A stretch of DNA of 15,087 nucleotides, taken from a virus (taxonomy: Duplodnaviria > Heunggongvirae > Uroviricota > Caudoviricetes). A program made the position numbers and the translations under genes. The DNA lies in IMG/VR virus record IMGVR_UViG_2698536392_000024, positions 1 to 15,087 of that record; one strand, given 5' to 3'. Each line of letters starts with the position of its first letter. The first letter of the stretch is position 1. Shown piece by piece: positions 1,322 through 2,982 of the stretch. The notes beneath the pieces were generated by a model that was not told the origin of the DNA, searched no databases, and saw only the letters and a list, made by a program, of their open reading frames with translations.

Positions 1322-2215
1322 TTACACCCCGCTAAATTCTTCCAGTTTCTGGCGGTGGCTGTCGCTTATATCAAAAGCAAAATCCTCATGCTCTGCCTGG
1401 AATGTACCAAACGCCATCAGCGCCGCTACACTCGGGTCTATCTTGTTCGGTGATTTTTTCTTGTTCGGCTTGATATTGGCGTTCGCGTCACTCTGCATCA
1501 CGACGTTACTCATCGACCAGGACAACACCGGATCGCCACGATGCACAATCACCCTGCGGTTAACAAAAACTTCGAACGATTTCGCCGCCGGACTGAATCT
1601 GAGGTAGGTTTGCGGGAACGGCTCCACCTCAAAACCAGCCCCCTGTAATTGCGTTCTCAGGTGCGTGGCGTTCCACGTATCAAAGCCCACCAGCCTGATA
1701 TTAAATTTCTCCGCATCCTGCATGATGTCATCTCTGATCCGGTCGTAATCAATGCAGTCACCTGGCGTTGTGCGTATCCAGCCCGCTTTAGCCCACTGGC
1801 GATAGACAGCGCGGTTTTTATTGGCGGGGTTCTGTAGCTGGAACTCCGGCAGATAATGACGGGAAATCAGCATAATGGTTTTACCGACCGGAAAGGCATA
1901 GCACACGCTGGAAATATCGCTGGTTGATGATAAGTCCAGCCCCGCGTAACACTCCTGCCCGTGTAAATCTTCCTCCGTGAACGTTCCGGCACACTCAGCC
2001 CATGCGCCGTTACCCATCCACGGGGTAGCCCCCTGGCACCAGATATTAAATCGCTTTGTCATCATCTCCACCCATTGCGACGGAATACCCCGCGCTTTCT
2101 GGATGGTTGAGGCCAGTTTTTCACGATCCACGGAAACATCGATGTTAGGGTTAGCCTTTATCCACATCGCCGGATCATCAACCTCGTTTTCGTCGTCCAG
2201 CTCGTAAATCAGCAC
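1322..2215 (-). CDS. terL: Terminase large subunit, C-terminal nuclease part (frame 2); this frame is open upstream to about 2350
   Basis: Upstream in-frame translation ...RRLLFAITTSGSNVVSACKQHYDYCCQILDGEEVNDSIFVLIYELDDENEVDDPAMWIKANPN is TerL-like and contiguous with the ATPase part if 1 nt is restored. Confidence 0.85.
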   Translation of the reverse strand: MLIYELDDENEVDDPAMWIKANPNIDVSVDREKLASTIQKARGIPSQWVEMMTKRFNIWCQGATPWMGNGAWAECAGTFTEEDLHGQECYAGLDLSSTSDISSVCYAFPVGKTIMLISRHYLPEFQLQNPANKNRAVYRQWAKAGWIRTTPGDCIDYDRIRDDIMQDAEKFNIRLVGFDTWNATHLRTQLQGAGFEVEPFPQTYLRFSPAAKSFEVFVNRRVIVHRGDPVLSWSMSNVVMQSDANANIKPNKKKSPNKIDPSVAALMAFGTFQAEHEDFAFDISDSHRQKLEEFSGV

Positions 2216-2982
2216 AAAAATTGAATCGTTGACCTCTTCGCCGTCCAGGATCTGGCAGCAATAATCATAGTGCTGTTTACAGGCTGAAACGACGTTACTG
2301 CCCGATGTGGTAATGGCAAATAACAGCCTTCGGGACGTGCGCCCATCCCCAACTCAAGCGCGGAATAAACGCCGTTATCGGGGTGTAGGTGGTATTCGTC
2401 CACGATGGAAAGGCTTGGGTTTGTGCCCTCGATGGTTGCCGCTTTTGCTGCCAGCGGCTTTAACAGGCTGTTGCTTTTCGGGTGCATCACCTTGTGGGCC
2501 TGAATATTCACCCGCCTGCGTAACGGTCGGGATAAAAGGCACATCTGACGCGCATCATCAAAAACGATCCGCGCCTGGTCACGGCTCACCGCTGCGGTGT
2601 AGATATCCTGCTGCCCGTTCTCCATAATCAGAAACCAGTTAGCCAGAATCGCGGCGGTCGTGGATTTCGCATTTTTGCGCGGCACTTCGATAAAGGCGCT
2701 CGTGTATTTGCGCCGTCCGGTGGCCTTAACCTTAAAGCCGAGGATGCACGCAAAGGCGAACTGCTGCCACGGCTCCAGCTCAATGGGTCTGCCACGCATC
2801 GGCCCTTTTACGTGCGGGCACACCCTGGAAAAGGCAATAAACCGCTCCACAACCTCACGATCGAACGTATAAAGGGGGTTTTTAAGGTCCGAAAAGTACC
2901 GTTTAACGGCCTGTTTCAGCCGTTTACAGGCCGGAATTTTGCCCGTTTTTACGTCTTCTGCGTACTTATTCCAGGCGGTCAA
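2209..2982 (-). CDS. terL: Terminase large subunit, N-terminal ATPase part (frame 1); reads out of frame after about 2322
   Basis: Walker A-like VPRKNAKST and Walker B IVDEYH; after GMGARPEG the frame turns to junk (CYLPLPHRAVTSFQ...) while the adjacent frame continues protein-like; track start is a TTG. Confidence 0.85.
   Translation of the reverse strand: MTAWNKYAEDVKTGKIPACKRLKQAVKRYFSDLKNPLYTFDREVVERFIAFSRVCPHVKGPMRGRPIELEPWQQFAFACILGFKVKATGRRKYTSAFIEVPRKNAKSTTAAILANWFLIMENGQQDIYTAAVSRDQARIVFDDARQMCLLSRPLRRRVNIQAHKVMHPKSNSLLKPLAAKAATIEGTNPSLSIVDEYHLHPDNGVYSALELGMGARPEGCYLPLPHRAVTSFQPVNSTMIIAARSWTAKRSTIQFLC

Follow-up and report, generated by a model that had tools for sequence, protein, structure and literature searches.

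The prototype of the capsid-forming PICIs (cf-PICIs) is EcCIEDL933, from E. coli O157:H7 EDL933 (Alqurainy et al., bioRxiv 10.1101/2022.09.08.507074). Helper-dependent induction of such islands, and their transfer in small capsids of their own with hijacked tails, are known from experiments on EcCIEDL933 and a few others (10.1101/2025.02.11.637232; 10.1101/2022.09.08.507074). When the packaging-module genes of EcCIEDL933 were mutated singly, transfer was fully abolished, the mutant of hypothetical gene 1792 being the sole exception, and replication was unaffected. Mutation of the helper-phage homologues left transfer of the island unaffected; the machineries of phage and island are not interchangeable (10.1101/2022.09.08.507074). 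The large terminase (TerL) of HK97 (PDB 6Z6D; Fung et al. 2022, PMC9410871) has a two-domain architecture, which is common to the terminase described here once its reading frame is repaired.

The window analyzed in this study, a 15,087-nt stretch from IMG/VR record IMGVR_UViG_2698536392_000024, is a cf-PICI of ~14.8 kb, and its membership of the family is secure. Its gene order is that of EcCIEDL933, with int, an alpA-like HTH gene, the replication module, ssb and perC in the first half, capsid, protease, portal, head closure, connector, HNH, terS and terL in the second, and no tail or lysis genes. The 8.2-kb morphogenesis and packaging module of the prototype has 94.9% nucleotide identity to the window, and its TerL is identical to the repaired TerL at 546/553 residues (98.7%). 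The two islands differ in their integration sites (roxA-phoQ for EcCIEDL933, cspD/yljB-clpS for the window island), and their integrases share only ~80% nucleotide identity. The replication protein of EcCIEDL933 is of the DUF927 kind, whereas the window island has a D5-type primase, itself broken. The terL gene is intact in EcCIEDL933 and frameshifted in the window.

Organization of the island

The genes run on the minus strand from the integrase through the regulators, primase, ssb and PerC to the capsid and packaging module, which extends through terS and terL. The features other than terL are as follows; those called intact are taken from the reading frames of the window and from the PGAP annotation of identical RefSeq sequence.

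172..188, minus strand: direct repeat of 17 bp, AATGGTGTAGTTAATTT, at the end next to clpS, probably the att core
2966..3322, minus strand: terS (P27-family small terminase), intact
3611..4051, minus strand: HNH endonuclease of the packaging module, intact
4051..7662, minus strand: morphogenesis genes, all intact
4051-4347, minus strand: head-tail connector
4344-4682, minus strand: head closure
4679-5890, minus strand: portal
5892-6449, minus strand: prohead protease
6505-7662, minus strand: major capsid
9532..11345, minus strand: primase (D5_N/DUF5906/Pox_D5) pseudogene, 4-nt deletion, fragments of 134 aa and 535 aa
13849..15087, minus strand: tyrosine integrase, intact

The island sits between cspD/yljB and clpS in strains 2013C-4830, 2012C-4227, 90-3040 and 2013C-3492, the window being the reverse complement, and the second copy of the 17-bp repeat is found beyond the window, immediately upstream of int. 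The cf-PICIs measure about 10-18 kb (10.1101/2025.02.11.637232); about 14.8 kb separate the 17-bp repeats in locus L001, and the window copy is 132 bp longer. The int gene, HTH regulator, Icd-like protein, DUF4222 gene, primase (as a pseudogene), ssb and PerC follow one another in the conserved order, and all eight capsid and packaging genes are present in the order of the Proteobacteria, terL among them in frameshifted form. The module is complete by ancestry, not by function. Neither lysis genes nor a complete tail module are annotated between the att repeats. The initial annotation had taken the element for a satellite, and a satellite it is.

Two further observations concern the island as a whole. 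The window has one extra copy of a 132-bp tandem unit (731-1034) relative to every related locus examined; it differs from CP013029 by one SNP and this extra unit, and it has no exact match among the complete genomes. The regulatory region of the island contains a C4 antisense RNA and isrK (Rfam).

A one-base deletion in terL

The terL gene of the window (2982-1322, minus strand) is broken by one missing G in a GGG run, and its parts are the following.

1322..2982, minus strand: terL pseudogene, 1661 nt (intact copies 1662 nt, 553 aa), PGAP 'terminase large subunit, frameshifted'
2327..2328, minus strand: deletion site, 1 nt, from the alignment with intact L002
2209..2982, minus strand: ORF1, 257 aa, made of 219 native residues and a 38-residue out-of-frame tail
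1322..2215, minus strand: ORF2, 297 aa, GTG start, native residues 257-553, nuclease domain only

Intact copies read GAAGGGCTG where the window reads GAAGGCTG. The remaining GG, at 2327-2328, falls in codon 219 (Gly) in the minus-strand context CCC GAA GG|C TGT, the intact gene having CCC GAA GGG CTG and the window CCC GAA GGC TG. ORF1 reads ...GMGARPEG, continues with the 38 out-of-frame residues (CYLPLPHRAVTSFQ...) and terminates in the TGA of 2211-2209. From 2353 down to 1322 the second frame stays open and reads ...RRLLFAITTSGSNVV...LIYELDDENEVDD... (also given as ...LLFAITTSGSNVV...); the earliest start codon within it is the GTG at 2215. When the G is put back, the window yields a single ORF of 553 aa with the Pfam domains TerL_ATPase (71-242) and TerL_nuclease (252-530). 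The initial annotation had located a 1-nt change near 2322-2330 and supposed that one added nucleotide would give a contiguous TerL of about 550 aa, and both statements are borne out. The alignment with intact TerL homologues that it had proposed gave exactly one indel in the pairwise comparison with L002, and the homologues examined outside the carrier clone described below are all single ORFs at the deletion site. The change in terL is a real, inherited one-base deletion, and the gene an ordinary pseudogene.

Distribution and descent of the deletion

The deletion allele is carried by four of 5426 complete E. coli genomes; a full-length terL homologue is present in 530 of the 5426, and GGG is found in over 100 genomes that share the local 60-mer. 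PGAP marks terL as 'frameshifted' in four complete genomes, those of the strains named above. From 534 homologous E. coli records we sampled 60, evenly spaced, of which 59 had no net indel and one was a truncated remnant. The homologues examined showed just two further defects, a frameshift at codon 512 and a copy that is truncated.

The evidence on the allele consists of assemblies built from reads, not of the raw reads. The deletion is present in loci L001, L003-L005, L007-L011 and L013-L017, with GAAGGCTG in every locus read back. It is seen in the PacBio genomes, in AP026742.1 (JNE110611), a Unicycler MinION+Illumina hybrid, in one draft contig, and in the Logan run assemblies SRR16947379, SRR1118444, SRR13605032 and SRR30307158. 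The exact 257-aa frameshifted product, out-of-frame tail included, is recorded in 137 blocks of public assemblies, the longest contig in each block being mostly 5-50 kb.

The named carriers are Shiga-toxin-producing E. coli (STEC) of clonal complex 119 (CC119). Those of serotype O165:H25 are ST119 and fall in clades A and B, and those of O172:H25 are ST660 and fall in clade H. Across the ~15-kb island, 11 SNP positions separate the two branches, whose flanking core genes also carry distinct alleles, yet they have the same terL deletion, and the deletion thus predates their split. The strains that could be identified make up a single clone with the deletion at precisely one site, and the split reading frame is accordingly shared through identity by descent. 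The initial annotation had named, as evidence that would refute it, homologues with the same split as two functional genes; the split is indeed present in more than 100 assemblies, but this answers to it only trivially, the identified strains all belonging to this one clone. We consider it highly probable that the terL deletion, in a satellite family already known, abolishes gene function and has become fixed in the lineage.

A later lesion in the primase

RefSeq labels both terL and the primase 'frameshifted'. The initial annotation had noted a frame change in the primase as well; the gene is indeed broken, though not by a single base, the lesion being the absence of GAGA (4 nt) at window position 11195/11196, and in one sub-branch only. 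The primase is intact (605 aa) in the O172:H25 loci L005, L011 and L017. The GAGA deletion is found in all O165:H25 loci, hybrid and Logan assemblies included, and the window belongs to this branch. Restriction of the GAGA deletion to the O165:H25 branch implies a stepwise decay, with terL lost first and the primase later. The O165:H25 island can probably not replicate either.

Position of the break in the TerL protein

The motifs of TerL were located by alignment to HK97 TerL (6Z6D), with the residue assignments of PMC9410871 and our own numbering. The repaired TerL aligns with the HK97 protein across residues 46-540 (E = 1e-41), and the Walker A lysines, the Walker B D/E pair and the C-motif Thr are all matched. 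Walker A is R102-K103-N-A-K106-S-T (102-108, R102-T108), Walker B is D195/E196, and T226, in ITTSG (224-228), aligns with the C-motif residue T186 of HK97. The frameshift comes after residue 219, past Walker B and about seven to eight residues ahead of the C-motif Thr226. ORF1 therefore keeps Walker A and Walker B and is without the C-motif strand ITTSG and the rest of the ATPase domain. Against the Pfam profile TerL_ATPase (PF03354) it matches only positions 1-150 of 178, the last ~28 positions, with the C-motif strand among them, being absent. ORF2 matches the whole of TerL_nuclease (PF20441, E = 2e-51). Native residues 220-256 are coded by neither ORF. An ATPase ORF and a nuclease ORF had been described in the initial annotation; the description suits ORF2, whereas ORF1 is only a partial ATPase.

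In the repaired TerL and in all homologues outside the clone, both domains of the large terminase stand in one polypeptide, and in the window they are divided between two frames. The complete ASCE core (Walker A, Walker B and the C-motif/sensor strand) is lacking in ORF1, which is without Thr226. The Pfam envelopes and the HK97 alignment rule out a clean split at the domain boundary; judged from these sequence comparisons, the cut in terL is placed inside the ATPase fold and not in the inter-domain linker.

Consequences for mobility

One G was dropped from the GGG at codon 219 in an ancestor of the O165:H25 and O172:H25 branches. The deletion truncates the ATPase domain past Walker B, ahead of the C-motif strand and lid, and uncouples the nuclease domain from the remaining TerL. 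The island would then no longer be able to cut its DNA or to fill small capsids of its own with it, and would be passed on vertically only. The later 4-nt deletion in the primase would also have taken the replication protein from the O165:H25 branch. The predicted loss of packaging rests on the 98.7% identity of the two TerL proteins, on the mutant genetics of EcCIEDL933, and on the presence of this terL as a single megablast-detectable copy in each of the four complete genomes. On the published genetics of a near-identical prototype, the CC119 island most likely cannot be packaged and is inherited only vertically; we predict that helper-dependent transfer in its own capsids has been lost. The initial annotation had suggested a decaying, possibly non-mobilizable element: decay is evident in the two lesions, and the capacity for self-packaging has very probably gone. 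Apart from terL, the capsid and packaging genes show no damage in any good assembly of either serotype, which could mean that the lesion is recent or that the module has been kept for another reason.

Alternative explanations

The missing G could be a long-read homopolymer artefact in a truly intact gene, and the initial annotation had offered systematic single-base deletions in the assembly as an explanation. The four complete genomes in RefSeq that carry the allele were all assembled by the CDC from long reads, the documented method for 2012C-4227 is PacBio RSII/HGAP3, and private homopolymer deletions do occur in sister assemblies: 20.8 kb of CP027675.1 contain seven of them, each the loss of a single base from a G/C run of 4-7, and private changes of G6 to G5 and of G7 to G6 are found in the primase of CP027459 and in CP027325, respectively. 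The demonstrable error indels are thus in runs of 4-7 and private to one assembly, whereas the terL run is only G3 and the identical deletion is found across PacBio-only, MinION+Illumina hybrid, draft and Logan assemblies. Moreover, GGG stands at this 60-mer in at least eight further complete genomes of the same CP027xxx accession series (strains of the 2013C-, 2014C- and 2015C-series). A deletion in a G3 run that is common to all assemblies, whatever the platform, leads us to reject the artefact, which has a negligible probability; the exact frameshifted product in the 137 blocks, from several platforms, rules it out. A real deletion could still leave the gene functional if programmed recoding, by -1 ribosomal frameshifting or transcriptional slippage, restored the full-length TerL. 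Programmed frameshifts are known in phage genes, such as those of tail chaperones, and in IS3 transposases, and in the window ORF1 and ORF2 overlap, with both frames open over the junction. However, the sequence CCC GAA GGC TGT, where the -1 shift would be needed, contains neither an X XXY YYZ slippery heptamer nor a long A/T run, and the 106 nt downstream (2345 to 2240) gave no sign of a stimulatory RNA structure (MFE z = -0.56 versus shuffles). The junction is in one frame in every homologue outside the clone, and the allele came from this single-frame state by simple deletion. With neither slippery site nor structure, a programmed frameshift is ruled out, and recoding is left with next to no likelihood.

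A terminase in two pieces is another way in which the deletion might be tolerated, the ATPase part (ORF1) and the nuclease part (ORF2) being made apart and assembling into a working motor. This would be consistent with the match of ORF2 to the entire nuclease domain, with the overlap of its GTG and the ORF1 stop (GTGCTGA), which makes translational coupling possible, and with the persistence of the split in more than 100 assemblies. The break, however, is off the linker; in ORF1 a tail of 38 nonsense residues stands in place of the ~28 terminal positions of the ATPase profile, and the stretch from 220 to 256 is missing from both products. A distance of 17 nt separates the GTG from the nearest upstream AGAGG, which is more than a normal Shine-Dalgarno sequence allows. 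The persistence is by descent in one clone, with no independent recurrence, the only other frameshift found being at a different site (codon 512). Translational coupling might yield a little nuclease-domain protein from ORF2, and yet, given the established architecture of terminases, a truncated ATPase and a separate nuclease are unlikely to form a packaging motor; we regard a functional two-piece enzyme as very improbable. Somewhat less improbable, and still very unlikely, is that the island, dead in terL, has been kept across the whole of CC119 as an anti-phage system that protects the host and cannot leave, the candidate effectors being the capsid, portal, HNH and TerS proteins or the truncated Walker A/B fragment of TerL. 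Interference with helper phages is common among satellites. PICI-encoded systems that interfere with tail assembly are reported (PMC11364771), and the remaining morphogenesis and packaging genes of our island are intact across two serotypes. Against domestication, the 11 SNP positions in 15 kb between the branches are too few to tell selection from recency, the primase has decayed in one branch, as neutral erosion predicts, and no accessory or defence gene was identified in the island. A recent lesion explains the intact state of the remaining genes equally well. The reading that we retain is loss of terL function by a deletion inherited within CC119.

Significance and relation to known systems

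The cf-PICI family, the HK97-like TerL, the pseudogenization of lineage-fixed mobile elements and the RefSeq 'frameshifted' labels are already known. The present analysis shows that the lesion is genuine and extends through the lineage, places it exactly within the ATPase domain, puts the two events of decay in order, and corrects the primase lesion to 4 nt. Because the CC119 cf-PICI is very probably immobile, mobilome surveys should leave it out of their tally of active satellites. The island provides a phylogeny-dated example of stepwise satellite decay, with terL lost before the O165/O172 split and the primase after it. The true frameshift lies in a short run and is seen across platforms, whereas each long-read error is confined to one assembly and affects a G/C run of 4-7; the contrast is of help when a PacBio-only genome has a gene called 'frameshifted'. 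Beyond such bookkeeping the finding is of little consequence.

Among the systems with which the island can be compared, HK97 TerL is a distant relative that belongs to a phage and not to a satellite, and the window copy is truncated eight residues short of the equivalent of its T186. The terL of the cf-PICI in JNE141411 (NZ_AP027256.1), an unrelated island, belongs to the same gene family (99.2% nucleotide identity) and has a 1-nt deletion that is likewise annotated 'frameshifted'. That island differs in that its terL change is CC to C at codon 512, near the C-terminus, and in its integration site and strain background. This independent frameshift indicates that sporadic loss of terL recurs in the cf-PICI family. 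The cryptic E. coli prophages e14, Rac and DLP12 became fixed in a lineage after the genes for their spread had been inactivated and were eroded stepwise. These are prophages, whereas the CC119 element is a satellite, at an early stage of decay, with two small deletions and the rest intact.

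Lesion in the primase gene

The lesion is the loss of four nucleotides rather than of one, GAGA within GGAGAGC, and it interrupts the following gene:

11345-9532, minus strand: primase pseudogene, with the lesion at 11195/11196

This deletion was found in the O165:H25 loci on all platforms; it was seen in none of the O172:H25 loci, in which the primase is an intact ORF of 605 aa.

Single-nucleotide deletions in sister assemblies

The sister assemblies built from PacBio reads only carry private 1-nt deletions within G or C runs of four to seven. The locus of strain 88-3510 (CP027675.1) has seven of them across its whole 20.8 kb, and these disrupt the protease, the connector, the HNH region and the nuclease part of terL. 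The primase of CP027459 has a private change of G6 to G5, and CP027325 has one of G7 to G6.

8591 and 10068: window equivalents of private deletions in sister assemblies

Because the hybrid and Logan assemblies were free of these private deletions, the latter are probably errors of assembly.

Island ends and regulatory region

172-188, minus strand: 17-bp direct repeat AATGGTGTAGTTAATTT at the island end
731-1034: tandem repeat with a 132-bp unit, the extra copy at 885-1016

The 17-bp repeat lies on both sides of the island, with copies at 1877-1893 and 16681-16697 in L001, a related island locus, and is the probable att core. Position 1 to about 170 of the window is chromosomal sequence upstream of clpS, which occurs in essentially all E. 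coli. Between the probable att core and the final island ORF is placed the tandem repeat, within which are the short palindromes GCGCAAAATTGCGC and CCCCCATTGGGGG. It has 2.3 copies in the window and one fewer in all related loci examined (PacBio, hybrid and Logan); thus, either the window represents another assembly or the copy number varies.

12204-12291, minus strand: C4 antisense RNA (Rfam, 72.6 bits)
12313-12388, minus strand: isrK Hfq-binding RNA (Rfam, 69 bits)
12239-13210, minus strand: 323-aa ORF, from the ORF list

Both RNA matches exceed the gathering score, and the two are adjacent to each other in the regulatory region, beside Icd-like genes. The stretch spanned by the 323-aa ORF has no PGAP annotation other than Icd-like/Ash fragments of small size and, on the opposite strand, a YlcI/YnfO gene.

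Comparison with related islands

L006 (NZ_AP027256.1) 3019-4679: terL of strain JNE141411, annotated as "frameshifted"

The terL of JNE141411 has an independent frameshift, CC to C at codon 512, in a related cf-PICI whose integration site adjoins mdtJ. The prototype EcCIEDL933 has, at the equivalent position, a unit 80-83% similar to the 132-bp repeat of the window.
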